Below are positions 4,831 to 43,839 of a stretch of 64,000 nt of DNA, piece after piece. Both the position numbers and the translations under genes were made by a program. Numbering within the stretch: the stretch's first letter is position 1; every line of letters begins with the position of its first letter. Location: contig NIVC01000513.1 of NCBI GenBank assembly GCA_002269645.1, positions 434,001 to 498,000 of the forward strand. Direction: 5' to 3'. The stretch is from Macrostomum lignano. Lineage: Eukaryota. A model generated the notes under the pieces. The model saw nothing but the letters and a program-made list of their open reading frames with translations, was not told where the DNA came from and searched no databases.

Positions 4831-5569
4831 GTAAAAAATATGCTGAAATAGTCTATTTAAGCCCTCGCCCCCCGCCTCGCCCTCGCCCTCCGCCTCGCCC
4901 TCGCACTCCGCCTCGCCCTCGCCCTGGGGCCCCTAAGCCGAAGCCAGTATTTCTGTAAAGTTCAAAAGTCGCAATTTAAGTTTTTTTTAATAGGCGCGCA
5001 ATTTGTTCTATCAAGATATTTCGGGTGAAGCGGGGATGAGACGTGAATAAGGTCTCTGATAGCAAGAACATTAGAACTAGAATTTGGTAATTGACCATTG
5101 AACTTAAAGTACGTGTAAGCACGAAATATAGCAAATAAAAGTTCGTCTAAACACAAACTTCTTGAAAAGCAACACTGTTTAGATAGGAATTTTTAGTCTT
5201 TACGCATTTCTTTTTTCTGATCAACATGCGAACGTGGAAAAGCTAGGGAGTGAAAAATTACCTCTGCATCAAAGTTTCGCAAGCCGATTTCAGCGTCCGG
5301 AATATGAGATACAGAACGGAGCTTTCTTAAAACCCGTCGCTCCATTTTTGCCCACTTCAACCTTTATTTCGGCCTTAATTGAGTTCTTCAGCTCCGCAGC
5401 GACAGCAACCGCAATCGAAGCTGGATTGTACGATGACACGTCAGGTTCGACATTTGCCAGAAGGCTTAACACCGCAGGAAAACACAGTCGGACTTGCCGC
5501 TTATTGCCTCAACTTAGAATACTCGGACACAGATCTGACAGAGCTGAAACCACATTTAAAAGTATTTCA

Positions 5570-8628: not shown

Positions 8629-8949
8629 TGTTTTGCTTTAGATGCGAAATACTCCAGTCCTAAACTTCATAGCACATGGTGATTCAAGCGATTTTATAGA
8701 GAGCGAAAGAGGTCTTATGAGATCGATAACAAAGGGGACAAAACATAAATGCGGGTGTACGCTGGCGCAGGCGAGAGGCAAATTGTTTATTAATGTACAT
8801 TTGTGCTGGGGGCGGGGGAGATAAGGAAAGCCGTAAAACGCACTGACTGCGAGAAGAGGGGGGTAGTGGATGAGAACGAGCCTCTAGCTAGCCCCACATA
8901 TTAACAAGGTGCTGCAGTCCGACTCCAGTGTCTTGGGCAACAACTTTAA

Positions 8950-9665
8950 ATTGTTTTTGCTCAAGGCCTGGGTCCTGCGGGGCGGCTGCGACAGCCTAGA
9001 TGCGGCTGAAAAGGACATCCAGGCCAGGCATTCGACAGGCCGCAATTATGTCGTCATTGCCAACGGCGACAAGCGCTGCCTCATCAGGGCGCTTGTGGTG
9101 GCCAAGGCCTTTGCCGACCTGGAGTCCAAAGTCATAACTAAGAATACGTGGCAAACGATCAAAGCCCACTCCCCACTGCAGAAGAAGCAGACTGGGGAGC
9201 TTCAGATTGCCGCTAAATTGTATTCGGAAAATTATCTTACACATTAATTTGCATTTTTATTAATATACAAATGTTTTAGTCTTCATCAACCATCACACAG
9301 GCTGGCCCCGATCGCTTCGATGTGCTCCCCCAACTGCTGGCCACTATTAATGCTCAGTCGCCCGGCCGAGATTTTGGCGTTCGCGTGTACAGGGCTAAGG
9401 AGGGCAACACGGGTATCTATGCCCTGCCTGGCAGCACAGTGCTCAATTTGCACCTGATTGGCGAGAATTTCAACACTGTGTGCAAAGTGCCGTCATTTTT
9501 CGGTACTCGCCGCTATTGCGGAAGCTGCCAGCAGCCGTACGATTGCAGCTCTGCTGAGCACAAGTGTGCCAACCTCTGCTATCAGTGCAAAGTGCCTGGC
9601 AAGAGCATGCGGCGCAACTACAGACGCTGCACCGACTGCGGTCTGAATTGCTACAACCGTATTCT
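8950..9665 (+). pseudogene. polB: pPolB N-terminal region fragment (Maverick), with a probable intron near 9230-9300
   Basis: VIANGDKRCLIRALVVAKA matches the I-x-N-x-D-x-x-CL-x-RA-x-VVA motif of Polinton polymerase N-termini. The Cys-rich YCGSCQQPYDCSSAEHKCANLCYQCK segment is homologous to 14380-14520. An acceptor cacacag ends at 9301. Confidence 0.75.
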
Positions 9666-10469: not shown

Positions 10470-11810
10470 TTATTTATAACCATAAGGCTGGCTGCACACA
10501 GCCCCGTCGTACACTCGTTTAGTCAGCACGCGCTGAAACGTCTTGTCCATATTGATTGTATGGATGGTGCAAGTCGCCTTGTCGCGCCCGAACTGAAGTT
10601 GCGGCAGCTGCAAAGAGCCGCCGTGTAGCAGCGTGGTGCGCAAGTCCTTACTGCTCTCCCGCATCTCCGGAGTCAGGCGGATGCCCTTGCATTTCAAGAC
10701 CTGGCTCCTCCCCCCAGCCGCATCCTCGACAATGTATGTGTAGAGCTTGGGCCCTCCACTCACAAAGTCGATCATTCGGCTGCCGGCGGGCACCTTATCC
10801 GTCCCGTCCACATTCCGAGGCTCGTGCCATAGGGGCGGCTCCCATTGGCCCTCGGAATGGCGGTTAACGACCCTGTGTGTGTTGGGGGTGGGGGGAAGAA
10901 AATAGGCTATTAGTTCGGATTTCACATGTTAAGAATTGATACGTAATCAATTCTAAAAGAAATTATCCAGCCTGCAATACTTACGAGTCGGTGTCGCAGT
11001 AAATGGCCCGTTCACCGAGACCCTCCAAGGCCTCGTACAGGCGCAGCCGGGCCTGTGTGTCTGCGTAAAACCCGATATGCACATTGGAGTAGCGGAACGG
11101 CCGCTGATTAAAGTAGCGGTGCCGGTACTCCAGCAGCGTAAACTCGCTGCCAATCGGTTCGCAGGCTTTGACTTCGAGATTGGGTTCGGTCAGCCGGGCG
11201 AGCCAGTCCTCGTAACTGGAAACTATTTCTGTCGATGTCAGGTCGTCACGCTGACAGAATTTACCCCAGAGCCTGTGAAAATATTGGTTCCTGTTAGTAA
11301 AAGAAATCGTTTAAAAAACATAATTTATGATAACTTACGAATTCAAAAAAAATTTCGCTACAAAGCGAAGTCCAGGGTTGGGCTCGACTTTGACCAGCGT
11401 GACGCCTTCCTTAGCCTAAAAATCGGCAATTTAGGCGGCCTTGTCTTCATCAGTCATGCCGGAGGAGCCGCTCGACTCGGCCTTCAACTTGAGGAAGGTA
11501 TTGACGTAATCGCTGAACAGGCCATTCCGCTGCTCTGTCCAATAGGCTAGCGAATGCACAACTTGCAGTTAGTAGCCCAACTGGAAGGCCTTCCGCAGCT
11601 CCGGCGTTGCCCAGGTGCCAGTCAGCGCCCGTTCCTCGTCTGAGGGGTGGCAGCCGCTGCACTGCTCCTGCTGCTGCTCTATACAGGTGCGGCAAAGCCC
11701 AAAAAAGAGCTTCTTTTGCACCCTGTATGGCAACAGCGGAATGTGCAAATCCGACGGTGGCAGCACAGTCACTTTGGCAATGCCAAAGTAGCTAGCCAGC
11801 GCGTCAGAAT
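10470..11810 (-). pseudogene. polB: pPolB C-terminal half with two GT-AG introns (11273-11338 and 10873-10984), decayed
   Basis: TVLPPSDLHIPLLP...LFFGLCRTC, GTWATPEL, FLNS^LWGKF, TDS^VVN, VSGGPKLYTY, KCKGI and KRVY...PYGYK*. It has several in-frame stops and is the inverted homolog of 40979-42343. Confidence 0.9.
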
Positions 11811-12529
11811 CGCGTGATCACGCGTGCACAGAATGGACCGAAAAGCTACCATTATTGTTATTTTAGCTTAGCAAAACCTTCCCGCCTTCACTTTCTTCTT
11901 CTTAGTACCCGCAGACACTCATTTTAAAACTCTTATCCACTTGACTTCTTCCTTAGCGTTAGATTAGTTCAAGACTCAAGACAACTAGTCCAAGACAAAA
12001 CAGAACTAAATAGTAATTTAGGCATCTATTTTCCACACCCAGTTATGATTACAATATATATATATGCCACGACAAGACATATATTTCTTATTACAATAAA
12101 AAAACGACTGCTTACTCATCATTCTTCACTTTCTTCTCTCAAACTACGGCGACGTCAAATCGACTTTCTTGATCCCCTTTCTCTTTACTTCTTCTTGCTC
12201 GTCTCTTTGACACACAAACGTCCTGACAACGGTCCCGCTCAACTCAACCTGATCCAGCCCGACCCTGCCCAACCCTGCCCTACACTTCGACTGGCTCGAC
12301 AACGACACCATTCAGACAACTCTAGTGACACCAGCAGCAAATGTACAACATCATTACAAGTGGTGGCCCTGAAAAGGGCCGGTGGATCGTTCAAAACCGC
12401 GGCATCATCACCGACAGCGTCAGTTCTGCCGCGAAAAGGCTACTGAGACCGCCCACCTACTTACCTACACCTCGGTCTCGCGAACCGTCACCGCTGCATT
12501 CGACTGCTGATGATGTCTCCGACAGCAGC

Positions 12530-12835: not shown

Positions 12836-14198
12836 CAAACACCAGACGACCAGGACGACGAAAATCAACGCGATGGCGCCGACACCCAGTCCGAATCCAG
12901 CCTTGGCCGTCCAGGCTACTTGGTCGAGCTCACGGAACTGCTCCCGGCCGAGGACGAGATCTCCCATGTTGATCACTTCCTGAATACTTGCAAAAAACTA
13001 ACCTAAGAAACGCTAGGACTAGCCTATTACTTACCGGTTATATCTGAAAAGAACACTAGACTGACACTAACCTTGATCTCAGCAGCCAGCGATCCTTCTC
13101 CCTCTCTAAATTTTGACTTTAAATACGCCTTTTGGACCTCCAATTTCACTTCTCCTATTATCACCCCACCCCGCACAACAATGTACGCTTTATCGATTCG
13201 ATGCACGTACTTTTCATTCGCAATCCCCGCCACTTATTGTATTACCGCACTCTTGTTTGTTCAATCGCCGTTTCTCACCCCCCCCCCTCGCGCGCGTCTC
13301 TTCACACTTCGCGCAACCCCCCCCCTCCCCAGCCCCCGTTCCGTCTCGCCACTACAACTTTCATCAATGTTTCCACCCTCCATGCGTTACTTATCATAGT
13401 CACACTGCGTTCTCCAATTCTCTCTTGATTCAAGCTCTTCCTTTTGCCATCTTTTCTTCTCTCTTCCTTAATCTCCATCTTCCATTTTTATCGAAAATTT
13501 TTACAAAACACTCAAAAATGTATTACACTCCACCTTGCCCCTCCGTTTTGTTATCTTTTGACGATTTTCGAGAGATCTGAGACCTTCGCTCGTTGAAAAA
13601 GGGGCAATGAAATCTAGCCATTTCCACCGCATGCGTTTTAGCACAAAACTCCATCTATGCACTTTCATCTGCTGATTCGCTAAACGCAGGCTACCAATAG
13701 CAGCCTAACATCGCGCTGTATTTCAATGCACAAAAGTACGAAGCAGTCCTTAGACCTCTCTTGGAACTCCCATTGTACTTCTTACACTCTAGCCAGCCCA
13801 CAGACCCTTTATCCATTCCCTCTACTTCTGACTCATTGGCAAAATAATTAAAGACATTGATAGAAACCAAACCAATCAAATCTAAAGTTCACACCCGATC
13901 GACAAGCAATACAGGCATAGCCTCGAACACCAGATCAGCCGAGAGTACTGATAAGTATCGATATATTCCGTTTCTGACTGCTTCATACTTCGTACTTAAG
14001 AAGCTTACATCCTTTGTATTTACGTGAACTCCATCAGTGATTTAGATTGGAAATATACCATCTCAAGAGAAGGTTCAACACCGCAGGAAAACACAGTCCG
14101 ACTTGCCGCTCATTGTTTAATCTTAGAATACTCGGACGCAGATCCGACAGAGAGCTGAAACAACAATTAAAAGTATTACAAACCATTGCACAGGATGG

Positions 14199-15880
14199 GC
14201 CTTTCGGGGTTGACGTGCTCCCCCAACTGCTCGCGGTCCTGAACGCCCAGTCGCCCGGCCGGGATTTCGGCGTCGGCGTGTATAGCGCCGAGGAGGGCAA
14301 CACATGTGTGTACACCCTGCTTGGTAGCACAGTGCTCAATCTACACCTAATTGGCGAGCACTTCAACACGGTGTGCAAGGTGCCGCCATTTTTCGGTGCC
14401 CGCCGCTATTGTAACCGCTGCCAGCAACCGTATGATTGCATCTCTGCAGAGCACAAGTGCGCCAACACCTGCCCTCAATGCAAAGTGCCCGGCGCGAATT
14501 GCAAGAGCATGTGCGACTACAAGCGCTGCGCTGACTTTGGCCTCAAGTTCTCTGAGGCCAAAGCAGTGCTTTGAGAACCACCGCCGGAAAAACCGGGCCG
14601 GCAGGTCTCGCTGCAGCACCACCCGCGTCTGCCCCAAATGTGGATATGTAGAAGAATTCAGAGTCGGCCAGAAGGAGCCGGAGCACAAGTGCGGCCATGT
14701 CGAGTTCCCACTGTGTAAACAGTATGACGAGGCCGGCTCGCATTTGTGCTTCGTCAAGGCTCCCAAAGTGAAAGATTCGACTATGCCGTACGTGTTCTAC
14801 GATACGGAAAAGTACACGGATGAGGAGAAGCAGCATCACGTGCATCTGGTGACTGCCGTCACGTGTTGCGAGACCTGTTCCGGCCGGGCGTTTCCGCGCG
14901 AGACTTGCCGCCTCTGCAATGGCCTGCATAGCACAGCCAATTGTCTTACTGGCCGCGATCTGGGGGAGGAATTCTCCAATTGCGTCAGCCACTCAGACTG
15001 CGCCTGCCAAATGACAGACTTTGTGGCTGTGGGCCCGACCTCGCTGAATGCTTTTTTCGCCTGGCTAAGCACCACATTCCGAGGCGGCGCTATCGTTGTC
15101 GCGCATAATGCATCAGGCTACGATTCGTTTTTACTGCTTGGCGCTCTACTCAACGGCCTTGCCAAGAAGCGGCCCCAAGTGTTGTTCCAAGGCAGTCGGC
15201 TAATGTGCATGACGGTTGATAAATTGGTGTTTAAAGATTCGCTAAACTATATACCAATTCCGCTTGCGCAATTCCCCAAAGCTCTGGGGCTCGAGGACAC
15301 AAAGCTGGCCAAGGGGACCTTTCCCCACGAGTTCAACAAGCCTGCTAATTGGAACTACGTTGGCCCCTACCCGGCTATTGATTATTATGGCGGCAAGGCA
15401 AACAAGGATTACGGCTCCATCTGTGCTTGGCTGGCCTCGCGACAGGGCGAGTTGTTCAACTTTAATCGGGAATATCTCGATTATTGTTTGAGCGACACGG
15501 TGCTGCTTCGCGAGGGCTGCATCGAGTACAGGGCGATAATTGGCGACATTTGCGACGGCCTGGAACCGTTTGTACAGGCCAATACGATTGCCAGTTTGGC
15601 AATGGCCGTGTTTACCACCCGGTTCATGGAGCCCAACTCGGTCGGCGTGATTGCCCGGCAGACCGACCAGCAATCGTTCAAGGCGCGCAAGTGGCAGACT
15701 TATTTGAATGCCACCGAATTTGGCGGGCGGCTGCGCACCTGCGACTCGACTAACGGCGGCGAGGCGGTCATTCTCGGCCGCAAGATGGACGGCTTTGATG
15801 AGGCCACCAACACTGTCTTGCAGTTTCATGGTTGTTTCTACCATGGCTGCGAGCAGTGCATGCCCGATCAGGATTGGCTT
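14199..15880 (+). pseudogene. polB: pPolB N-terminal Cys-rich region, 3'-5' exonuclease and Vsr-like insertion; one frameshift near 14560; truncated before motif A
   Basis: ExoI YVFYDTE, ExoII VVAHNASGYDSFLL, FKDSLNYIPIPLAQFPKALGL...KGTFPHEFN, ExoIII YCLSDTVLL, TIASLAM and MDGFDEATNTVLQFHGCFYHGC. Confidence 0.92.
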
Positions 15881-17462: not shown

Positions 17463-18420
17463 ATGGAACCACCATGGATCAAGCTACGGCACGTGACGTT
17501 CGTTGACGAGGGAGGAAGGCCAGACACGGAGGAGGAATGCAGGAAGATGGAAGAGAGAAGGTTAAGAGCGGCTGGCGACGAAGCAGACATACTGATCTTC
17601 ACGGATGGTTCGGTTGACAAGGAAGGAAAAGGAGGCGGAAGCGTGGTGGTGTTGAGGTATGATAGCGGAGAGGAGATCGAGAAGCGTATGGTGGCCGGCG
17701 GACAGCTTGCGTCCTCGATGCAGGCGGAGCTGTACGCGTTGAAAGAGGCAATCGGGTGGCTGGAGGCTAACAACAACTTGCAAAAAGCTGTGGTTGCGAC
17801 AGACAGCAAGAGCGGGATTCAGGCCATTAAGAGGGCCAGCAGGAACCCGATTGTCTGCAGCATAAGGAAAGCGCTGAGCGAGATGGTAGGACGTGAGATG
17901 GTGTTGCTGTGGATACCGAGCCACTGTGGGATTGTTGGTAATGAAGTGGCGGACGAATGGGCTAACCGGGCGGTCCGGGAGGTGAGCAGCGAAGGAATTG
18001 GAGTCATGGCAAGCACGATGGCGAGGAGGCGGTGTAGAAAGAAGGTGTGGAGGCACGAGAGGATGAGGGAGACGTACGGTAGATCGGAGGGGCCATGGAA
18101 AGAGCCGGAATTCGCGAGCAGGAAGATGTAAGTCAGCTTTAAGCGGTGGCGCATGGGTCACTCTCTGGAGTTGGCGGCGTTTAGGCAGAGGATCGGGCTG
18201 CAGCAGGAAGGGAAGTGCAGGCATTGTGGCATGGAAGAGGAGACCATCGAACACGTGGTGGCCTGCCCGGTCCTAGACAGCTGCTGGAGGGGATGGAGGA
18301 GCGGGATCCTGAGCGAGGTCTGCACGAATGCGGAGGAAGCGCTGAAGGTGTGGGAGTGGTGGAAGAGGAAACCACCAGAAAGCTGCTAGACATCAGCAAC
18401 AACAACAACAACAACAGCAG
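17463..18420 (+). mobile_element. 5'-truncated RNase H-group (I/Ingi-like) non-LTR retrotransposon, 3' end only, with a (CAA)n tail
   Basis: RNase H motifs IFTDGSV, MQAELYAL, TDSKS and GNEVADEWA. They are followed by GHSLELAAFRQRIG..CRHC..EETIEHVVAC, a stop at 18389 and a caa/cag repeat tail. Confidence 0.85.
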
Positions 18421-18429
18421 CAGCAGCAA

Positions 18430-21400
18430 TGGCAGCAATGACGTGCCGGTCAGCTGGTTTGGCTCTGGGCAGGCGTCATGGATCAAGAAGGACAACATCA
18501 GACCCTTCAACAGGAGTACGGGGTGCAACGGGGCGATGTCTGCGAGGTTGCGCCAAGCGGTGAAGATGGCCACGGCCGCCTTGGACGGGAAGAAAGGCCG
18601 GACAGCAGGAGCTGCGGAAGTTAACATCGAAATACCGAGGTCTGACGAGGATGTGACAGCGAATAGGAGCGGCCTTGAGAGGCTCGGAGAAGAGCAAACC
18701 AGTACCATCAACTCGCCGGTGGGGAGGAGACTCACCGAAGTCGAGGACAGCCGGGAGAATCCGCCACCCAATCCCAAAACTAAAAAACCCGGCGGAACCC
18801 CGACGCTCGACCAAGTGGCCCCGCCCGGCAGGCCGAGCTATTGCGGCAAGTGCGATCGCAAGATTAGAGCCGGCCACAGCGGCACCCCGTGCGCACAATG
18901 TCACCGTGTCTTCCATCGCGCCTGCACGACCATCTCGCGCTGGAGACCTGCTGAAGGAGCTAGCTGGATATGCCAGCCCTGCGCCGCCAACAACAGAAGC
19001 AGAACAGCCGAAAACACCGGGGAGACAGAGCCACCCCAACGGCCCAGCCTAGCCCGGAACAGTTCGGAGAGACCGCTCACCGCTGCGAGGGCAGGCCGGT
19101 GTGCGGAATGCAAGAGATTCAGGAGGAGAGGACAAGGGGCTGAGTGCAAGAACTGCGGCAAGAAGGTTCACTGGTCCTGCTGCCACAGGACCTACACCCG
19201 GAGGCAGATCGAAGGTCTGAAACACCGGGGCTGGACATGCAACGAATGCGCCCACGAGGCCGCAGCCAAGCCGGAAGGCACAGCGCTCCCACCCCCACCA
19301 CCCGCCGCTGGCCAGGCACAGACAGCGGACGGACAACAGAGGCCGGCAGGGTGCAGCGGAGAGCCGAAGACCAGCAAGCTCACCATCATACAATGGAACT
19401 GTGACCACTTCAAGGCCAAGGAGCCGGAACTCAAAGAGCTCGTGAGGCAGCAAGATGCCGATATCATTATGCTGCAAGAGAGCAAGCTGAAGGCCGAGGA
19501 CGAGCTGCTAGCCTGGCCAGGCTACACGGTGCTACGTGCGGACCGCAACCGGCACAGACAACACCACAGCGCGAGAGGGGAGGCCTGGTGACCATCATCA
19601 GACACGGGCTGCGGTTCGAAAGGATACAGGCGCCAGTGACCAACTCGCAGCTAGAAATGCTAGGCGTCAGGCTATACTTTGAAGCAAACAGCGGGCAAGG
19701 CCTGGAACAACTGCTGCTGATCAACATCTACATCCCGCCCCAAGCCACCTGCAACATGGCAGCAGCCGAGCTGGCGCAAATCCCAGGCGGCGAGAACCTG
19801 CTCTTGGCCGGCGACTGGAACGCACACCATGAGCTGTGGGACAACAACTCCCCCAGAGACAGGCGAGGCGAGGAGCTCGCCGACTGGATGGACGAGCAGA
19901 TGTTAACGGCGCTGAACGATGGATCCACCACCCGAACCAGCTGGGACGGTGAACACAGGTCTTCGCCGGACGTGACCATAGTCCCGCAAGCGGAGCTAGA
20001 CCAGTGGGAATGGCGGACAGCAAACAGGCTAAGCTCCGACCACCTGCCGATCATCATCAGCCGCAGTTCATCGAGTCATCGACTTCCTCGAGTTCATCGA
20101 CGAGGAAGTCCAGCTCCTGACGGCGGAGAGAGACAACATTAGAATGAGTGAGGGTATCGAGTCTGAGGACTGGAAGCACCTGGACCGGCAGATCAAGCAG
20201 AAACAGCAGGAGAATAAGAGGGAAAGATGGAGAGACAAGCTGGACAGCAATGCGACGGCGGACAAGATGTGGTCGCTGCTGAAGCAACTGAACGGCGCGG
20301 CGCCCCCCAGAGCGGGGACCAGATCCTTGAGTACGAAGGCAAAATGTACAAGTCGAGCAGAGCCAAGGCCAACATCATTGCGAAAGTATACGCCAAGGTC
20401 AGCGCCACCACCGTTAGGGCCAGTCACAGATGGGCACGCAGAGAAATTAACGCCCGGCTGAGACAAAGCGCCGCTACCCCCACCACCGAGGACTGTCAAG
20501 CCATGACCATGGACGAACTGCTAGCAGCGCTGCAAAGCATGGACGCCAACAGAGCCGCCGGAATGGACGGACTGCACCCGAAGCTGCTGAAGGCGCTCCC
20601 CCGAGAAGCGCTCCCAGAGGTCCTGAAGCTGTTTAACCGGTTGTATGACTGCGGCTTCACGCCGCAGAACTGGCGCACGGCCCGCATCATGCCTCTACTT
20701 AAGAGCGGAAAGCCCGCTAAGGACATAGGATCCTACCGCCCGGTTAGCCTAACCTCCAGCTTAGGTAAGTGGATGGAACGGGTGCTTGCGAACCGAATCA
20801 AGCATGTTCTGGAGTCCACCGGCGGTCTCAGCGAAGCGCAAGCGGGGTTCAGAGGGGGCAGGTCCACGGAGGATCAACTGCTCCGGCTGTCCCAATCGAT
20901 TGACGACGCTTTCCAAGAGCGAAAACTAACGGTCCTGGCGCTGTTCGACTTTGCGCGCGCGTTCGACAAGGTCTGGCGCGACGGGCTGCTGATCAAACTG
21001 CTTAACGCTGGCATTGGCCCAAAAACGGTCAGATGGATACAGAGCTGGCTAGCGAACAGGCTGGCGTGCGTCCGGGTCGGCGACGTAAACAGCAAGCGGG
21101 AACTTTTCCAGCAAGGGCTGCCGCAGGGATCCGTGCTTTCACCGCTGCTCTTCATCGTCTTCATCGATGACCTTCTCAGGCAACTTGACGCTATCCCGGA
21201 CTTGACGGTGAGCGGCTATGCGGACGATCTAGCCACCTGGACCAGCAGCAGAAGAGTAGCGGAGGCCTTATCCACCCAGCAGAAGGCGGTCGACACACTG
21301 GAAGCTTGGAGCAAAGCATGGCTGCTACCGGTTGCCACGGGGAAATGCTCGCTCACCCTCTTCTCCAGCGACCCAGCGATGACCCCGCAGAGGGCCGGTG

Positions 21401-22996
21401 CCACGAACGTTGTGCTTCAAGGGCAGACGATGCAATGGGTTGAGCAGCCCAAGTTGCTCGGGCTTACGTTTGACAGACAGCTGAGGTTCACAGCGCACGC
21501 TGACAATGTGATCCACAGCTGCCGGAACCGCCTCAACCTAATGCGGCGCCTCGCGGGCAGCTCCTGGGGCTGGCAGGCCGAGCTGATCCGCAACACCTAC
21601 GTTGCCCTCATCCGGAGCAAGATGCTGTAGGGGGCCTGCGCCTGGATGCCGTGGCTCACTTGCGCGGCCTGGCGTAAGCTCGAAGTGGTGCAGCACAGCG
21701 CGGAGCGCATCATTACCGGCGCGGTCGCCACCACCCCGGTTGAGGCCCTACGCTGCGAAAGCGGGATGATGTCGATCCGGGAGCAGAGCGAGGTGATATG
21801 GAGCGCAAAACTGGACCGATGGCTCAGGCTCGAGCACAGCTCGCCAAGATACCGCCTCGGCACCCAGCAGACCCGGCAAAGGCTGAAGAGGCTGGGCTGG
21901 AGAGCCCAGGCCAGGAAGGGTCTCGCCAACACCGGTCTAGCCGAGTTGGCCAGGCTCGAGGACAGGTCGGACCTCCCCCCGTGGCAGAGTTGGAGAGATA
22001 ACATCAGCTTCCTCGTCTCCACCGACGATGCCAGGAAAGAGTCGCGCGCCGGAAACCTTGAGATGGCCCAAGCGAAGATCAACCAGGCCAGCCCAGACCC
22101 GGACATCACTATCTTCACGGACGGATCGGTGCGGAGGGAGGGCGGCGGCAGCGGTGCGGTCATCTATCGGAGCGGGCGTCTAACAGGAGAGCAGGTCGGA
22201 GATCAGATCAGCCTCCGGAGGGCAGCCGGGCAGCCAGCCTCCTCGCTGCAAGCCGAGCTCACCGCCCTAGAGCTAGCGGTGGAATGGCTCAGCGAGCAGC
22301 CGGCGTGGAGAACAGCGCTAATCGCATCCGACAGCAAGAGTGGGCTCCTCGTAGTGCAGGGCCGAGGCCGCAATCCGATCGCGACAAAGATCCGCCAGCT
22401 GCTCTCGAGGACCTGCCAGACCGGACGAGAGATTGCGCTCTGCTGGACGCCGGCCCACTGCGGTCTGGAAGGCAACGAGGCCGCGGACGAAGTGGCCGGT
22501 GGCGCGACGGCATTGCCGCAGGCGGAGGCCAGAGTGCTGGCGAGCGTTGTCCGCAGACGGCTGGCAGCCGTGGCGAAGGCAGCAAGCCAGAACAGCAGGC
22601 ACTGGTCGCACCGAAGATCGAAAGACACCTACGGCCACCTCGGTACGGCCAGGCACCCGGCCTACAAGAACAGGGCGGAGGCGGTTAGCTTTATTCGATT
22701 CCGCACGGGCCACTCGCTGGAGCTGAGGGCCTACTGCCGGCGGATAGGCAGAACCACCGACGCAATGTGCCCGGCGTGCGGGACCGAAGAAGAAACGGTC
22801 GAACAATCGAACATGTGAGCAGTCAGTGCCCGGCCACGGAGATCAGGCGAAGGCTGGACGGGCCCACGGAGCTGCACCACCTCAACGAGCATCCAGAGGA
22901 GGCGCTCCGGTACTGGGCCTGGTACCGTACCAAGTGGAAAGAGAACGATGCAAACTAGGATGTTCGCGCCTTCAGCGCAAACAACAACAACAACAA

Positions 22997-23719: not shown

Positions 23720-25917
23720 TTGACTTACTTGACTTAGCTGCAGGGGGCGTCCGGCGGATGCAGCGGGGAGGCGGAGGAGACCGCCCATTCCGCTAGCCCC
23801 TGGTGACCAATGACTTCCGTTGAAGTGAAGTCGCTCAGGGGGACCCGTCGGTCTCGCCTGCAGCGCGGTCCTCCTCACCGACAGTGGGGAAGAAATCGGC
23901 TCTTCCCGTGTCCCTGAGGTACCGGGCGAGCAGCGGGATGCTCTCGGGCCTGCAAACGTCGGAGAGAACCGGGTTTAGCCCGAGGTGAGTGAGCCTGGCC
24001 CTGGTGAAAACCGGGCAGTGGCAGATAAAATGCTCGGCTTTTTCACTGCCTGAGCGGCAGAAAGGGCACCGCTCCTCGGGTACCTGGCCCTGAAGGAAGC
24101 GGTGGCGAGAGAAGCAGCCATGCCTGGAGAGGGCCATGCTAACTGCTCTGAGGTCTCTGCGGTTGAGCCTGAGGAGGGCTCTACGCAGGAGAGGGGAGAG
24201 GCAGGGGACGGCCACCCGGGATTGCCTACAATTCCGGGTGTCGTGCCACCTGTGGAGATGCTCGGAGTCAGCCCAGCGCTTAACGCGGGAGTTGATCACC
24301 GAGGCGGGGATGGGGGCCCCCGGGCCCGGCCCCAGCAGCGCGCCGGCGGAGCCAGCCTTGGCCAGCAGGTCGGCGCGCTCGTTGCCGAGGGAACCGGCGT
24401 GGCCCGGGATCCATCTGAGCTCTACCTGGTTGCCTAGCGCAAGCCCGTTGAGCTGGGTGTTGCAGTCCAGGACGGACCTGGAGCTGGTGGTGCAGCGGCA
24501 GAGGGCCTGAAGGGCTGCTTGGCTGTCAGAGTGAAAAATAAGCTTCCGACCGCTAAGCTGCCTTCGGCGCAGTTTTGCCGCGCAGGAGCTGATGGCAAGC
24601 ACCTCGCTCTGAAAAACACTGGAGTTGAGCCCAGTGTGCTGGGTGTAGCTCCACGCCACTTCTCCCTTGAAGAAGACGCACGCTCCGAAGCCTGAAAGAC
24701 CATGCTTCATAGAGCCGTCAGTGTAACAGTGGACTTCAGAATCGCTCCAGCTGTCACTCGCCTCAAGTCGAGGCTGAATAGTGACCTTTATACCTTTGGC
24801 TCAGGAGAAGGGTGGCTGGGATCGAGTCCGAGAGGATGTTGAGCCCGCCACATTCTTCTAGAGCCTTGAGGCAGAGGTCAGAGTGCGGGATAAGCGACCG
24901 CTTCTTAAAGGCCACCCCAGCATCCAGAAGACGCCGGGTGCTCTTCGCCGCCTCTCCTTTGATATAAATATCCAGAGGAGAAGTGCAGAGGGAGGCATTC
25001 ATGCCTTCAAAAGGAGTAGAGGGTGGAGCGCCCATAGTCATGCGGCAGGCTCTGCCCTGGATTTTGTAGAGAGCGTCGAGGTTACTCTTGACGCCCAGAC
25101 CGCTAGCCCACACGAGGCTGGCGTAACTGATCGAGGGGCGGATGATTGCAGTGTAAATCCACAACAGCTTCCTGGGGGTGAGCCCCCAGGTGGTGCCCAC
25201 GGCGCGCCTGATCTGAGCCAGGACAGCCAGGGCTTTTTTGGCTTTAGTTTGAATGTGCGGAGTCCAGTTGAGCCTGTGGTCCAGAGTGAGGCCCAGGCAG
25301 CGGACCTGCTTCTCCATGGAAATGTTCTTTCCATAGAGGGTGAGGGGCTTAATGGTCCAGAGCAGTCTGTTGGTAAACATGACCGCTGTGGTTTTCGACT
25401 CTGAGAGTCTAAGACCACATTGGTTTGCCCAACGCTCTGCTCGTCCCAGAAAGCCCTGCAGAAGATCTCTGATGGTGTCAACCGAGGGGCCCGCGCAGAT
25501 TGCGGTCACGTCATCGGCATAGCCCACCTTGAGAATGGGGTCGTGGAGATCACTGCAAAGCAGCTCATCCATGACCATGTTCCAGAGAACGGGGGTGAGA
25601 ACTCCGCCCTGGGGGCCCCCTTTTTGGACAGGCGCCGAAAGAGAGCTGCCGCTCAGGTGGGCCACAACAGTGCGGTTCCGGATCATGAACATGATCCACC
25701 GGACAAGGTGAGGGTGCGTGGCCCTGGATTCCAGGGCTCTGCAAAAGGCCTCGAAGATGACGTTGTCGAAGGCCCCCTCAATGTCCAGAAAAAGCGAGAG
25801 GGCAAAGCCGCTGCCAAGAACGGCCCTCTCCAGGAAGTCAACAATGACATAGAGGGCACTCTCGGTAGACCTGCCCGCGCGGAAGGCGTGCTGGTTCTGC
25901 GAGAGTGGGAAGCTCCC
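23720..25917 (-). mobile_element. 5'-truncated Loa/R1-like LINE (RT plus RNase H)
   Basis: QHAFRAGRSTESAL, LFLDIEGAFDNV, GGPQGGVLTPVLWN, YADDV; RNase H HCYTDGS, QSEVLAI, HSDSQAAL, GNERADLLAK. The tail is ..aagtcaagtaagtca. The flanks rejoin to resemble the empty site at 39735-39800. Confidence 0.9.
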
Positions 25918-25985
25918 CACTTACATACGTTACATACGTTTTCTACATGCACCTCGAGCGTTAGTATTCAAATAAATTGTTTTGA

Positions 25986-35509: not shown

Positions 35510-36170
35510 GGCAGGCGGCAGTGATAAAATCAACCCCCTGGGCAACGCCGGAGCTGCGAAAGGCGTTCCAGTTGGGCTACCGCCTGCAGGCGGTGCACGC
35601 GCTAACCTACTGGACAGAGCAGCGGACTGGCCTGTTCAGAGATTATGTCAACACCTTCCTAAAGCTAAAGGCTGAATCGAGCGGCTCCCCCGGCATGGCC
35701 GACAAGGACAAGGCAGCTTACATTGCCGATTTTTACGCAAAGGAGGGCGTCACGCTGGACAAGGTCGAGCCCAACCCAGGACTTCGCTTTGTGGCGAAAA
35801 TCTTTTTGAATTCGTAAGTATTCATGAATTGTTTTTTAAACGATTTCTTCTACTATCAGTAGCTTTTCTTTTCACAACACAGGCTCTGGGGCAAATTTTG
35901 TCAGCGCGATGATCTCACATCGACCGAAATTGTGTCCAGTTACGAGGACTGGCTCGCCCGGCTGACCGACCCCAACCTCAAAGTCAAGGCCTGCGAACCG
36001 ATTGGCAGCGACTTCATGCTGCTGGAGTACTGGCACCGCTACTTTAATTAGCGGCCGTTCCGCTACTCCAACGTGCCAATCGGTTTTTTTACGACCACGC
36101 AGGCCCGGCTGCGCCTGTACGAGGCATTGCAGGGGCTCGGCGAACGGGCCATTTACTGCGACGTATTGCA
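35510..36170 (+). pseudogene. polB: pPolB fragment (WATPEL to YCD) with the motif-B intron (35815-35882)
   Basis: KIFLNS^gtaagt...cacag^LWGKFCQR; very similar to 41235-41860; one stop (taa near 36050). Confidence 0.88.
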
Positions 36171-36714
36171 TAAGTATTGCATTGGAAAAATTCTTTTAGA
36201 ATTGATTACTAATTATACAGCGTAATTATACAGCCCTATTTTTCTGATTTTAGATTTTTGCAAATGCTAAAGATGAAAAGCATAGTTTTACGCGCGCAGA
36301 GACTCACCTAGCTGTCGTCCCCTCTTTTCGGCCGGAGGCTGATGCTGCTGCTGTGGTTGTTGTTGTTGTTGTTGGCGTTGCCGTACCACAGCCCTATTCT
36401 CTCTTCATTTTAGCCCGTATTCGGAACTCGTTCCAAAGGGCCCGGCATTCCTTGGGCATGGCGCATAAGCCGCCCATATCCGTGATGCCGGTCTTCCTCC
36501 TGGTGTTGTCCATCACTGGGCACTTCCGTCTGGGTCTAGGTTCTTGGCAACGTATCTCGGACCATGTTCGCGGAGTGTATTGTATATAATACAATATAGA
36601 CTCCCCCAGGGCGCACCACGTGGAGGTCTGGACCCTAGCGCCCCTGCTGCTGTGGTTGCTGCTGCTGCCTGGAGGGGCCGGCCTGCCCCCACAAGGCTGA
36701 AATGGCGGCTTCAG

Positions 36715-37245: not shown

Positions 37246-37996
37246 AAGCCCACATTCGATACTTATCGAGAACTGATTGAGATTCGGCGTTTCTACACTG
37301 ACAAGAACGGCAACTACAAGCACGGCTTCCCGGCGTGTTTCTAACTCGCATCGAGTGGCAGCATCTCAAGAGGGCGTGGCCGATTATTGAGTCTCAGGGA
37401 AATGCTCGACTGCTCTCGTCATAAGTTTCAACTGGGTGAGGGCCGCAATATTCTGGAAGTGAAAAACAACCAGATTTGGCTACATCGCAACAACCCGGGC
37501 CGGGTACGATGAGCGCGAGCGCTGGAAATACTTAATCAGGTTCACCCCTGAATTGTGGATTGCTCTGATGGATGCTGACGTTGACTCGCTGTTTGCCTCG
37601 CAGTCGCCGCCGCCCAAGACGGCTTCGGAGCCATCATCGTGGTTTAACAGCGGCAGCAGCAGCAATGATGGTGACGGCGATGGCAGCCGCCGCCGCAGTG
37701 CTGGCACCCCGCCACCGATTGAACTGCAGCCGCAGGTGAAGAAGCTTTCTACGACTGACGGCGGCAGCGGCAGCGGCAGCGGCAGCAGCTACAAGTGGTG
37801 GCACTCGTATCCCCCGGACTCGACTGAGCTCGAGAGCTGGGCTGCTGGCCTGACTGATGAACAGCTTTTCAAGATCCCGACCCATCAGATTGGGCCCCAC
37901 GAGCCGGCCTTTGCTGCCTGGGCTGCTGTGATCAAGGAGCAGAACAAGCGATTTAAGCTAATCTGCAGTGACAAGGCCACAATGCGTGTCGAGTGA
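37212..37996 (+). pseudogene. Putative tandem PC4-like (ssDNA-binding) protein gene with a low-complexity tail, frameshifted
   Basis: TATA at 37103-37110 and ATG at 37212. Joining frames gives IEIRRFYTDKNGNYK..PGVFLTRIEWQHLK, resembling PC4 DIRE-x-Y-x-DK-x-G..GI-x-LT-x-EQW-x-x-L, then a second unit FQLGEGRNILEV...IRFTPELWIALMD. At least 4 frame changes are needed. Confidence 0.55.
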
Positions 37997-38798: not shown

Positions 38799-39670
38799 AT
38801 GAATAGCGGCAACGGCAGCAGCAGCAGTGTAGAAGAGCCGTCGCAGTTAGTTGCGGTGGCTGTAGCACTGCGTTGCGGCCGATCTCCCTCAATCCTGTGG
38901 TGCGGGGTTGGGGGCGGTCGAGTAGGCCGGAACCCGCCACTTCCCTCCACCGCCCGACCAGTTTTAACTCTGGCGTGTAAGTATGACAGCAACAGTAGTA
39001 GCGGCAGCAGCAGCAGCAGCACCAACAGCAGCATCAGTGGCGACAGCAGCAGCAGCAGCATTGACGACGACTTTCAAGGTTGGTGCGGTGGTGGCTACTG
39101 CGGCAATGAATGTTTCCAGCCCGGTAATGGCTGTGGACTGCTGGGGGCCAGCCCCTGTGAACATGCCGCAGTCGCCACCGCTGCCGCCGCGACTATTGAA
39201 GGCAGCAGCAGCAGTAGCAGTCTGAATCAGCAACCGCGGCAACTGAAGAAGAAGACGAGCCGCTGCCGATTGGGCATCAATTTAGCCCCTCGGATGGGGC
39301 TGCAGCAGCACAGTACTGACGCTGCTGCTAGTGAAAAGGCTGCCGCTGCTGACGACGATGGCGAGGCCACATACCAAGAGTTTTTGCGGCGTTGGCGCCG
39401 CGAGCCCGACTTGGACATGGTAAATAATTGCATTTTATCTGAAAACTTTTCATTTTGCAACTAATTGCTGATTCAAAATTTCAATGCATTATAGCGGAAA
39501 ACTTTTCCCACCATTCCCTTTTCTAGCTAGCTGACTATTGTTTTGGTAGCCCCACTGAAGAGCGTGCGTATTACACGGCGGTGAAGGAGCGGCGGGTGTA
39601 TGAGGCTGATTTACATTATGAAACAGCCGCAGAATTGGACAGCCTGTTTCCTGGCTCGGGGCTTTGTTGA
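38799..39670 (+). CDS. Two-exon unknown protein (254 aa; exons 38799-39419 and 39527-39670) with Ser/Ala tracts and a Cys-rich motif
   Basis: CCAAT/TATA promoter and a phase-0 GT-AG intron at 39420-39526. The frame is open after splicing, and both the exon-2 peptide and the Cys motif are conserved in other copies. Confidence 0.7.
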
Positions 39671-39921: not shown

Positions 39922-40380
39922 ATGGCTGCTTTAAAGGTGTCGCTGCTGACTGAAGGTGCCTGCCCGCCGGCTCGCCAGACGATCGGTTCTGTTGGCTACG
40001 ATCTCTTTGCCTCTGAAGATGCTGTTGTCCGGGCCGGGTCGGTTGCGCAGGTGCCTCTCGGAATTTCAATCCAACCGCCTGATGGGACCTACGCTCGGAT
40101 TGCCGGCCGGTCTGGGCTAGCGTTGCGCAAGTCTATACAAGTGGGCGCCGGCGTGATTGACCCTGACTATACTGGAGAATTGACTGTGGTGATATTTAAT
40201 CATGGCAATGCGGACTGGTTCATAACTCGGGGCTACCGTATCGCTCAATTAGTTTTGGAGCGTGTATTGATTGCTCCCGTAGTTGTAAGGGATCTCTATA
40301 GGGGAAATGGCGAAGAGGAGGCCGCTGGCAGTCACTCAATTCGCGGTGCAGGAGGGTTTGGTAGTACAGGCTATAATTAA
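39922..40380 (+). CDS. dut: Trimeric dUTPase, intact and intronless (152 aa)
   Basis: All five motifs are present: GYDL, GRSGLA, GVIDPDYTGEL, RIAQLV and RGAGGFGSTG. A TATA ctataaa lies at 39867-39873. Confidence 0.95.
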   Translation: MAALKVSLLTEGACPPARQTIGSVGYDLFASEDAVVRAGSVAQVPLGISIQPPDGTYARIAGRSGLALRKSIQVGAGVIDPDYTGELTVVIFNHGNADWFITRGYRIAQLVLERVLIAPVVVRDLYRGNGEEEAAGSHSIRGAGGFGSTGYN

Positions 40381-40604: not shown

Positions 40605-40978
40605 GTTGACTCATTTGGATGAGATTGTACATGTAGTAGGGTTTCGAGTTGTAATTTTGGTGCGCGCGCGCTGGCCGTCTGGGGATGACACTGTAGATTA
40701 ATGCACATGTACATATAGAATTGGGGATAGACAATTTGGGATAGGGATTAATGTACATGGGATTAATGTACATATCCATTTTGAGATAGATAGGGATTAA
40801 TGTACATGGAATTAATGTACATATATGAGCACATGGATTATTACAACTACATATTGCCATATATCACGCTTAGGATAGCGTTTTCGTATACTACTTACTT
40901 CATTTTCAGATAGTAGTATAATTTGCGTTTTTTGCGTCAGAATTCTGAAAACCCAGCAGTTTCTGCACATTACGTAGT
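40605..40978 (-). repeat. Maverick TIR/terminal segment ending ...TTACGTAGT, abutting pPolB
   Basis: Homologous to 23282-23519 and 42707-43154. Confidence 0.85.
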
Positions 40979-42343
40979 GACGGTGCAGTCGAAAGACCCA
41001 TACCCGATTGGCCACCCGGTGCAACATCCGACGCCGCAGACGCTTAACTCTTACGCGCTGGCTAGCTACTTTGGCATTGCCAAAGTGACTGTGTTGCCGC
41101 CGTCAGATTTGCACATTCCGCTGCTGCCCAACAGGGTGCAAAAGAAGCTCTTTTTTGGGCTTTGCCGCACCTGTATGGAGCAGCAGTGCAGCGGCTGCGA
41201 CCACTCAGACCAAAAACGGGCGCTGACTGGCACCTGGGCAACGCCGGAGCTGCAAAAGGCCTTCCAGTTGGGCTACCGTCTGCAGGCTGTTCACGCGCTG
41301 GCCTACTGGACAGAGAAGCGGACCGGTCTGTTCGGTGATTATGTAAACGCCTTCCTCAAGATGAAGGCCGAATCGAGCGGCTCCCCCGGCATGTCGGATG
41401 AAGATAAGGCGGCCTACATTGCCGATTTTTACGCCAAGGAGGGTGTCACGCTTGACAAGGTCGAGCCCAACCCAGGACTTCGCTTTGTAGCGAAAATCTT
41501 TTTGAATTCGTAAGTATTCATAAAATTTGTTTTTTTAAATGATTTCTTCTACTAACAGTAGCTTTTCTTTTCACTACACAGGCTCTGGGGCAAATTTTGT
41601 CAGCGTGACGACCTGACCTCGACTGAGATTGTGTCCAGCTACGAGGACTGGCTCGCCCGGCTGACCGACCCCAACCTCAAAGTCAAGGCCTGCGAACCGA
41701 TTGGCAGCGAGTTTATGCTGCTAGAGTACCGGCACCGTTACTTTAATCAGCGGCCATTCAGGTACTCCAATGTGCCAATCGGAGTCTTTACGACCACGCA
41801 GGCCCAGCTGCGCCTGTACGAGGCATTGGAGGGGCTCGGCGAACGGGCCATTTACTGCGACACTGACTCGTAAGTATTGCATTGGAAAAATTCTTTTAGA
41901 ATTGAATAGTTAGCATGTGGAACTAATTATTTCGTTTTTCTCTCCCACACAGGGTCGTTTACCGGCATTCCGAGGGCCAATGGGAGCCGCCCCATGGCAC
42001 GAGCCTCGGAATGTGGACCAATGAGGTGCCCGCAGGCAGCCGGATGACCGACTTTGTAAGTGGGGGGGCCAAGCTCTACACTTACATTGTCGAGGATGCT
42101 GCTGGTGTCCGCAGCCAAGTCCTGAAATGCAAGGGCATCCGCCTGACTCCGGAGATTCGGGAGCGTAGCGACGACTTGCGCAACACCCTGCTACACGGCG
42201 GCTCTCTGCAGCTGCCGCAGTTTCAGTTCAGGCGCGACAAGGCGTCTTGTATTATACACACGATCAGTATGGACAAGACGTTTCAGCGCGTCCTGACGAA
42301 ACGGATGTACGGGGCCTGCAGCAGGCCTTATGGCTATAAATAA
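40979..42343 (+). CDS. polB: pPolB C-terminal half; three exons (40979-41509, 41582-41869, 41953-42343), open after splicing but 5'-truncated at motif A
   Basis: TVQSKDPYPIGHP, LCRTC, GTWATPEL, KIFLNS^LWGKFCQR, YCDTDS^VVY, VSGGAKLYTY, KCKGI, KRMY..PYGYK*. Both introns are gtaagt...cacag and phase 2. Confidence 0.93.
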
Positions 42344-42706
42344 TGGTGACTGACAATTCAATGTACATTTTGCATTATAAAATTAGTAAAATCTATTTGT
42401 TGTACATAATTTGCATGTTAAAGTAATGAACAGTTACAGACTACTATACAAATGTACATAAAGCATTTTTGTATTGTATGCGGCGAAATTGCCAATGTAA
42501 AAATCTATTGTACATATTTTGCGTGTCAAACTTGTTTAAAATCATTTATGAAGAGAAAATTATTGAAAAAAACAATGTAAATTTTTTGTGTATATTTTAT
42601 TTGCTGGTAATGTTGTATATAAATTATTTCCTGTAATATGCTACTGATTTAATGTAAATATATCTTCTTTGTAAATAGTTTATATACGATGTGAGCTGTA
42701 CAATTA

Positions 42707-43154
42707 GTTGAGTCATTTGGATGAGATTGTACAACTGTACATGTAGTAGGGTTTCGAGTTGTAATTTTGGTGCGCGCGCGCTGGCCGTCTGGGGATGACA
42801 CTGTACATGTGGATTAATGCACATACTGCGTACATATAGAATTGGGGATAGACATAGACAATTTGGGATAGGGATTAATGTACATGGAATTAATGTACAT
42901 ATCCATTTTGAGATAGTAAGGATTAATGTACATGGAATTAATGTACATATCCATTTTGAGATAGTAAGGATTAATGTACATGGAATTAATGTACATATAT
43001 GAGCACATGGATTATTACAACTACATATTGCCATATATCACGCTTAGGATAGAGTTTTCGTATACTACTTACTTCATTTTCAGATAGTAGTATAATTTGC
43101 GTTTTTTGCGTCAAATCTGCCTAATAACTTGGCAGTTTCTGCACGATATGTAGT
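42707..43154 (-). repeat. Maverick TIR/terminal segment ending ...ATATGTAGT; right boundary of the TE nest
   Basis: Homologous to 40605-40978, with an internal tandem expansion of the gtacatggaattaatgtacatatccattttgagatagtaaggattaat unit. Confidence 0.85.
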
Positions 43155-43839
43155 CTCTAGTGTGCTAAAGCAAACTCTTCAGTAGTACGGGATTGAGCAT
43201 TCATGAATGATTATGTGGTAGCTACTATAAGACTTAGAAATCTGAAACGAATTCAAGAGAGCTCTAGGATAAAATCAGGGCAGAAAATAGCAACAGTAGA
43301 GAGGGCAAGCAACTGAAAGCAGAGAGGTTAGATGAGGACACGCCCGGAGCTCACCCTTTCATTACAGCGCGAACGCGGCCCGTACAGACAGCAAAACTGG
43401 AACTGGTTGGAACCGGCCCGCGGGGGAGACTGATGAGGAGTTGACCTGGACCCCGCCTGGAGACGAAAGCCGGAGAAGGCCGGGACCGCACAAGAAGACT
43501 GGATCGATGAAGGGGAAAGGGATAACGAACAGTAGGAAAGAGGTCTGGGTAGAAGCGGGAACACTTCCTAACTTAGCTAATGCGTTTCAGGGCTGCCCCC
43601 CGCTACCATAGAAAAGGGGTTGGTGTGCCTACCAACTAACTAGTTTAAGGCTTATGAGTTATGACTGTGCTAGAGTTGAGGCTGTGACCTCGTTCAGGAC
43701 AAATCCTCTTGCTTGCCGTTGCTAAGTTTTTCATCCCCTCGGTTTCGAGAATATTATATAAGTCGGAGCGGAGCGCGGAAAAACGCGACCCCGCGGTTTT
43801 GCTAGAGAGTTAGCTTTGAGCTCCGTTAGGTTAACCTAC

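Follow-up and report, generated by a model that had tools for sequence, protein, structure and literature searches.

The flatworm Macrostomum lignano carries a lineage of Polinton (Maverick) elements in which the polymerase gene, pPolB, is interrupted by spliceosomal introns in its catalytic motifs A, B and C, and in which the polymerase and the capsid genes reside on two different kinds of element. As the integrase and capsid genes lie off the polymerase element and the polymerase has introns, this is not a canonical Polinton and would instead work like one divided in two. Judging from gene content and termini, the elements are likely to constitute a bipartite Polinton, made up of a replication segment and a capsid-plus-integrase segment. 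We also put forward, as a possible and rather doubtful whole, the combined view that this is the first segmented polintovirus, that is a two-segment integrating dsDNA animal virus whose segments draw on one pool of termini and move independently, and that motif introns are resistance alleles across animal Polintons.

Polinton lineages that are segmented, and likewise those that have an intron-split polymerase, are invisible to the usual surveys, because these filter on long polymerase ORFs and a neighbouring integrase; one survey, as excerpted, required a pPolB ORF of 900 aa and a nearby integrase (PMC10748475). Among the related loci that we sampled, about a fifth (18/80) are intron-split. 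Repeated gain of introns at defined codons of one gene would offer a testable system for the origin of spliceosomal introns and would link intron gain to the conflicts over homing nucleases seen in phages and mirusviruses; if true, nuclease-driven intron gain would be a new, directed route. Our literature search found neither motif introns in a Polinton pPolB nor a segmented Polinton, Repbase and supplementary files being outside its scope, so that an earlier description is possible. Neither feature appears in the accessible text of PMC11296320, PMC6431247, PMC11131425, PMC3024317 and bioRxiv 10.64898/2026.10.13.758929.

The pPolB gene of the window and its copies in the genome

The window, by which we mean the whole stretch of 64,000 nucleotides analysed (contig NIVC01000513.1, positions 434,001 to 498,000), contains the following parts of these elements.

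8897..9656, + strand: pPolB fragment with exon 3, intron 3 and the start of exon 4
10470..11811, - strand: diverged copy of pPolB that has in-frame stops; its two introns occupy 11338-11273 (66 nt) and 10984-10873 (112 nt)
14181..15874, + strand: truncated piece of exon 4 of pPolB, covering the exonuclease and VSR-like region
35537..36208, + strand: third pPolB fragment, with a motif-B intron at 35814-35882 (69 nt), cut inside motif C
37463..37996, + strand: short ORF homologous to the PC4-like gene found on the family-2 polymerase segment (a lead only, score 0.88)
39922..40377, + strand: dUTPase in the left arm of a second family-1 element (PF00692, E 4e-31); the same arm adjoins pPolB in L048 and L050
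40605..40978, - strand: terminal inverted repeat of the second family-1 element; the end of this element adjoins the polymerase copy and cuts it short
40979..41509, + strand: pPolB exon 5, 5'-truncated, starting inside motif A after the Asp and SLYP and ending in motif B (PF03175, E 3e-8)
41510..41581, + strand: intron in motif B, 72 nt, phase 2 in Ser; homologous junction skipped in runs X2 and X6
41582..41869, + strand: pPolB exon 6, from the rest of motif B to the DTD of motif C
41870..41952, + strand: intron in motif C, 83 nt, phase 2 in Ser; homologous junction skipped in runs X1, X2 and X6
41953..42343, + strand: last pPolB exon with the stop codon
42707..43154, - strand: right terminal inverted repeat of the window polymerase segment, the element end being 43154

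A preliminary description of this DNA had proposed a pPolB gene at 40979-42343 with two GT-AG introns, each splitting a Ser codon, whose removal leaves an open frame. The coordinates and phases of both introns proved to match: each follows the TC of the Ser codon and runs from GTAAGT to CAG, intron B has a branch-point match (TACTAAC at 41550-41556), and the three exon pieces flanking introns B and C are all open and of compatible phase. The sequence is indeed pPolB with introns, but it is a 5'-truncated remnant and not a whole gene, as its first bases already lie in motif A, right next to the terminus of the other family element, and none of the pPolB copies of the window could code for the whole enzyme. 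Both introns are also present in the diverged minus-strand copy, as had been described, and the motif-B intron reported for the third copy is confirmed, except that it starts at 35814 and not at 35815. If intron B or C of the window copy is retained, a stop follows directly after the Ser. Rfam gave no group I or group II ribozyme match at E up to 1 over window positions 40900-43200.

The end at 40978 prompted us to consider a CACTA transposon carrying a polymerase fragment, which is ruled out by the 6-bp duplications and ACTAC ends of whole copies. Non-LTR retrotransposon ORFs (endonuclease, RT, RNase H) lie among the Polinton fragments at 18185-22818 and 23835-25920 of the window, and intron-like GT..AG pieces are seen in or behind small polymerase-segment genes (window 39380-39640; L094:610-740).

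A DNA search of the genome, in which 40 of 117 candidates were scored, gave at least 44 matches, and querying with exon 5 gave at least 115 (134 of 134 scored); both are lower bounds, and they are not copy numbers because several pairs are near-identical and probably haplotype duplicates. The copies form two families, F1 (that of the window) and F2, with a protein identity of 62-74%. Whole pPolB copies have seven exons and six introns, all six positions being common to F1 and F2: three introns are N-terminal, in the variable part of the protein, and three lie one each in motifs A, B and C, for which the chance probability is ~2e-5. Intron A lies between D-V and V-SLYP in phase 0, and introns B and C split a Ser in phase 2. 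The introns originally described in motifs B and C thus both stand, but that account was incomplete, given the third motif intron (A) and the three further upstream. In one F1 and one F2 copy every exon continues the open reading frame of its predecessor, with GT donors and YAG acceptors, and the exon lengths, summed without joining the exons, amount to 1320 and 1277 codons. The pPolB motifs Exo I-III, A, B and C are readable across the exon ends, and PF03175 is matched. A single exon encodes the VSR-like domain. Within the first intron region of the family-1 polymerase element L022-L023 there is a 9.3-kb tandem array with a 161-bp unit.

The introns appear to be fixed. Counting inserts of at least 45 nt, irrespective of splice signals and only at junctions seen on both sides, an insert is present at 46/46 junctions for A, 46/46 for B and 44/44 for C in 45 fetched stretches; among these junctions there was no full-length copy without introns, the counter-evidence named in the preliminary description, and no processed copy. 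The view that the lineage multiplied while carrying its introns is supported by the many dispersed copies, which have 6-bp target duplications and are all intron-bearing. Intron lengths are 65-121 (A), 66-86 (B) and 66-97 nt (C) and cover all three classes modulo 3, and in many copies certain family-1 introns preserve the reading frame and lack stops. The genome has at least four further pPolB families whose motifs are uninterrupted, but these are distant. The same genome also holds several complete Polinton types with uninterrupted motifs (L061-L086, L108, L252-L259), and L061 is a decayed, uninterrupted, closer relative.

Between F1 and F2, dS is 1.5-2.9 or undefined, that is near or at saturation, at a dN of 0.20-0.30, and the exons behind the introns are evidently under purifying selection. 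The intron interiors of the two families are no more alike than shuffled sequence for A (295/500 shuffles reach the score) and B (111/500), and borderline for C (26/500). When the introns are compared with one another, A-B (383/500) and A-C (66/500) are not above shuffles and B-C is borderline (10/500); old introners would have lost their mutual similarity by decay. Five gene models (P0002, P0004, P0005, P0007, P0011) have some junctions right, and in none of them are all three motifs whole. The expectation that ORF-based searches would miss or mis-annotate the gene is therefore borne out to the extent that survey criteria drop it and no gene model is fully right.

Evidence for splicing comes from contigs of four runs, aligned to the sister copy L035, which is 92% identical to the window copy. 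Three of these (X1, X2, X6) are probable RNA runs, the RNA label being presumed, and X15 has an even, DNA-like cover. Contigs of X2 and X6 skip intron B (74 nt in L035, GT..AG) exactly; for intron C (78 nt in L035), exact skips are found in contigs of X1, X2 and X6, which are 3/3 probable RNA runs; the spliced contigs stem from three studies, and one 921-nt contig of X6 crosses both junctions. Contigs of X15 skip neither intron. Two of the joints have just 29 letters on their short side, the joints listed for L035 include none at which intron A or any of introns 1-3 is skipped, and unspliced intron sequence, which may be DNA or pre-mRNA, occurs in the probable RNA runs as well. Since the contigs were aligned to a sister copy, we infer splicing for the family via L035 rather than from the window copy itself. 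The introns have the properties of major-class spliceosomal introns, namely GT-AG ends, a branch point or pyrimidine tract, and exact removal of B and C. Junction-spanning sequence, the check suggested in the preliminary description, thus yields exact skips of both introns, and these, together with purifying selection on the exons, support its proposal that the lineage depends on nuclear splicing; the host spliceosome would make the mRNA from integrated copies. As public RNA data exist for the host flatworm, splicing and segment expression are directly readable.

Polymerase elements and capsid elements

The polymerase elements, of ~9 kb, comprise pPolB and a small divergent gene (PC4-like as a lead, score 0.88), with a dUTPase on some F1 copies and in the window. 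No integrase, capsid, ATPase or protease gene was found beside F1 or F2 pPolB in stretches L021-L060, L091-L107 and L110. These four genes, the integrase being of the rve type, are instead all present in 11/11 stretches around family capsid genes, on elements of ~10 kb, and nine polymerase queries found no polymerase in any of the 11. None of the four genes has an intron-sized insert in the elements checked (7/7). Identification of the capsid gene relies on F54H12.2-like relatives and on similarity to DJR-like clusters (Atlas score 0.98), with no sequence match in the PDB. Paired termini are seen in nine of the 11 capsid-gene stretches, with 6-bp duplications in all eight tabulated, and 12/12 family elements tabulated have matching 6-bp flanks. 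The capsid search gave at least 63 matches (143 of 436 candidates scored); comparing this list with the exon-5 list by hand, we found no polymerase within 40 kb of a family MCP among the matches listed, and three contigs that hold both kinds of element, at least 46 kb apart.

Both segment types are present in both F1 and F2. The capsid elements of the two families are sisters, their MCP, ATPase and integrase being 88%, 86% and 82% identical, compared with 27-38% between the capsid-segment proteins and those of three complete Polintons of the genome. Family element ends start with ACTAC, whereas two complete Polintons of the genome start with AGTAG. One F1 capsid element shares its terminal 30 bases, without a single difference, with F1 polymerase elements. 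Comparing ends more widely (L022-L056, L191-L210, L273-L286; window 16124, 40978, 43154), we found them to be mosaics of the same few short modules in polymerase, capsid and non-coding elements, the two ends of a copy almost always agreeing in their modules and the copies differing from one another, which suggests frequent exchange between ends during replication. We infer that the two segments likely need and complement each other: the polymerase would replicate both from their shared ends and the integrase would insert both.

These elements share with Polintons, including the VSR-bearing pPolB of marine nematode and mollusc elements described in part in PMC10748475, the PF03175 match and VSR-like motif, terminal inverted repeats, 6-bp target duplications, the rve integrase, a double-jelly-roll capsid-like protein, the ATPase and the protease. 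They differ in that the gene set is divided over two elements, with integrase, capsid, ATPase and protease missing from the polymerase element, and in that the flatworm pPolB has six introns and those four genes none, whereas published accounts give Polinton core genes as intron-free. Intact vertebrate Mavericks are without introns in the available text of PMC8097293, and nematode Polinton core genes are intronless according to an excerpt of bioRxiv 10.1101/2022.07.12.499685. Bidnaviruses provide another comparison, as they have a Polinton-related pPolB and two genome segments with matching termini (PMC8502044, in extract). However, they are parvovirus-like, whereas the flatworm segments integrate with target duplications, encode a Polinton-type capsid and an rve integrase, and have polymerase and capsid on different segments. 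A bipartite Polinton would bring segmentation to the group and would be a model step towards the bipartite bidnaviruses.

Two apparent links between polymerase and capsid genes were rejected. The integrase found next to a family-1 terminus at L201 is part of an unrelated, AT-rich, Polinton-like element (L201:1700-9241) that lies against a truncated family-1 end. The capsid genes around a family-2 polymerase at C4072 reflect a polymerase element inserted in the capsid gene of another Polinton; this host element (L248-L249) is unrelated and complete, and the insertion has a 6-bp duplication. Other elements with family-1 termini (L191, L192, L206-L208) are non-coding, 6-8 kb long and have very long internal inverted repeats. 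The family-2 capsid segment further includes a Fic-domain ORF (L269:2602-3405) and a TBP-like ORF (4941-5474), and one family-2 capsid element carries an inserted ORF of 981 codons (L257:255-3197), which may be a THAP-type transposase.

Introns at the polymerase motifs of other Polintons

Related loci were taken from metagenomes as the best 80 of 252, picked by likeness to the exon between motifs A and B (the A-B exon); this choice removes loci with introns inside that exon, and the A-B stretch is thus biased. Guided by reference sequences, the search for inserts yielded 64 candidates, and a filter dropped 28 (non-GT donor, frame offset, weak splice score, AT below 58% or length below 60 nt) and passed 36 introns in 18/80 loci. 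Two further introns seen by eye, in motif A of L117 and motif B of L149, are outside these counts, L149 being included in the tree test below. The other 62/80 loci have no intron passing the filter, and most VSR-bearing relatives are intron-free. Frameshifts at motif B in L115 and L118, considered as scars of cleavage, were ruled out as such and are probably sequencing errors, since they lie in homopolymer runs.

The 36 introns occupy 15 combinations of site and phase in nine clusters, at Exo II, a VSR-like FxGCxxHG motif (in three phases), YGGR, motifs A, B and C, and YLG; motif B alone has five intron positions within five codons. Relative to 97 uninterrupted references, the clusters are enriched at conserved windows (p 3e-4). 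The enrichment holds outside the A-B stretch (p 5e-3, or 0.011 with a Gly-weighted null as the strictest control) and with a null of well-flanked columns only (p 1.5e-3). An intron is present in each of the four windows of highest conservation and in 7 of the 14 that rank highest, while two of the nine clusters lie off conserved windows (55th and 18th percentile). These introns are 62-198 nt long and have no ORF.

From lineage to lineage, the intron positions are shifted by one to ten bases. In trees of the A-B exon, a single clade of all rows with a motif-B intron is rejected (p-AU 9e-7), in a test that used 39 of 107 rows and a quick tree, with groups named after the first tree was seen. A single clade of the six rows that split the same Ser is rejected only marginally (p 0.043); this Ser is split as TC^G in the flatworm lineage and as AG^Y elsewhere. 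The flatworm clade sits with the uninterrupted P0013 and L061, its nearest relatives in these trees. Motif introns have, on this evidence, apparently been gained independently in unrelated Polinton lineages. The preliminary description had regarded motif introns already common in related Mavericks as something that would remove the novelty of the finding and not the feature; other Polinton lineages do have them at the same or neighbouring codons, so that the claim to uniqueness falls and a general pattern takes the place of a peculiarity of one lineage. In L111 and L152, integrase, ATPase, protease and a capsid-size ORF are single frames beside the intron-split polymerase.

The lineage itself exists outside the M. 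lignano genome, as shown by unnamed proteins ~80% identical to the family capsid (P0328-P0330) and by ORFs 68% and 59% identical to exon 5 (P0122 and P0123). The latter two, seen at the protein level only, start at motif A and end in motif B, like exon 5. In IMG/VR the pattern of an intron at motif B had no match, and no relative was confirmed there.

Explanations for the position of the introns

The explanation that we favour over its four rivals, tentatively and as falling a little short of probable, is that motif introns are resistance alleles against nucleases that cut the motifs. A homing-type nuclease, either of a rival element or the VSR-like domain of pPolB itself, would cut the DNA that codes for a motif and cannot drift; this is the weakest step. 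An insertion left by repair within the motif would be lethal unless spliced, and an intron would break the target of a sequence-specific nuclease with the protein unchanged. Introns would so be gained repeatedly, at slightly different codons, and then kept. This reading is favoured by the intein-like preference for sites, by the homing nucleases of viruses and by the distribution of the VSR-like motif, which is present in F1, F2 and 83/97 references and absent from the four uninterrupted pPolB families of the genome. Preference for conserved sites has been ascribed to inteins and group I introns only, and not to spliceosomal introns (PMC2814812). Polinton-like viruses carry homing nucleases (excerpt of PMC12220804), replacement of pPolB between Polintons and HNH or VSR inserts in pPolB2 are described (excerpt of PMC10748475), and some spliceosomal introns of mirusviruses come with homing nucleases, of which 16 are VSR-like (PMC12768974, in extract). 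Running counter to a nuclease, the three N-terminal introns lie in the variable part of the protein and are as old as the motif introns, and the majority of VSR-bearing relatives are intron-free; in addition, 63 accessory ORFs of the metagenome loci have no homing-nuclease Pfam match.

The conserved-window enrichment can also be explained with no missing enzyme, if introns arise anywhere in an early, host-transcribed polymerase gene and those in variable regions are lost, while imprecise deletion or conversion to coding sequence is impossible in a catalytic motif, so that old introns accumulate there. We consider this unlikely, although it is the strongest of the rivals: the in-frame, stop-free introns of many family-1 copies would be the first step of such erosion, the small polymerase-segment genes hold intron-like pieces too, and slowed deletion is named as one cause of conserved sites (PMC2814812). 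The same source, however, reports no conserved-site preference for ordinary spliceosomal introns, the three N-terminal introns survived as long as those in the motifs, and five positions in five codons of motif B suggest focused gain and not only loss. An improbable alternative makes the introns relics, each motif having been invaded by a homing intron or intein with its own nuclease that then shrank to a short spliceosomal intron. Clustering at conserved motifs fits this, as do the mirusvirus shintrons (PMC12768974, in part) and PRP8, in which an intron and an intein share a codon and intein degeneration is one proposed route (PMC3749507, in part). It is opposed by the shifts of one to ten bases between lineages, by the window copy having no Rfam match and by the want of any long or ORF-bearing intron or any intein among 80 loci and 299 proteins.

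Host control of splicing, for which the third intron of the P element is a model, could instead act as a regulatory switch, with cell type or small RNAs deciding when an active polymerase is made and the motif site ensuring that the unspliced product is dead. The stop right behind the Ser on retention of B or C, the occurrence of spliced and unspliced forms in the probable RNA runs and the want of an intron-A joint among those listed would suit such a switch, which we nevertheless find quite improbable, as any upstream stop-bearing intron would suffice, repeated gains at neighbouring codons are left unexplained and the unspliced signal may be DNA or pre-mRNA. Least probable by far is decay after integration, whereby single integrated copies gained the inserts from introners or by chance and the two element types are unrelated deletion derivatives, both dependent on a complete element absent from the assembly. 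Dinoflagellate Polinton-like elements do acquire introners mostly after integration (PMC12166617, in extract), non-coding derivatives with the same termini exist, and our genome searches scored only the best candidates. For the introns this is already largely refuted, since they are spliced, predate the split of F1 from F2 and are fixed at every junction seen. For the segments, F1 and F2 each have both types, their capsid segments are mutual closest relatives, capsid and polymerase segments swap terminal modules, and among the matches listed no family MCP has a polymerase closer than 40 kb.

Inteins and homing introns resemble the flatworm introns in choosing the most conserved motifs, but the latter show no sign of self-splicing, no intein-sized insert was found in 134 whole-motif proteins, and neither the flatworm introns, at 65-121 nt, nor the ORF-free introns of other lineages hold a homing endonuclease or splicing domain. 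Shintrons, too, are spliceosomal; they occur in nuclear DNA viruses and some have VSR-like nucleases (PMC12768974, in part), but they lie mainly in virion genes, whereas the introns described here are in the polymerase, 60-200 nt long and without a nuclease. The introners of dinoflagellates share with the flatworm introns their location inside Polinton-like genes (PMC12166617, in part); they are young host transposon insertions, whereas the flatworm introns are fixed, old, not clearly alike and bound to motifs. An exact identity of intron and intein sites was ruled out for pol-c, but this intein site, YGD/TDS (PMC549080, in extract), lies close by, 8 nt upstream of intron C, and counts in favour of the resistance-allele reading.
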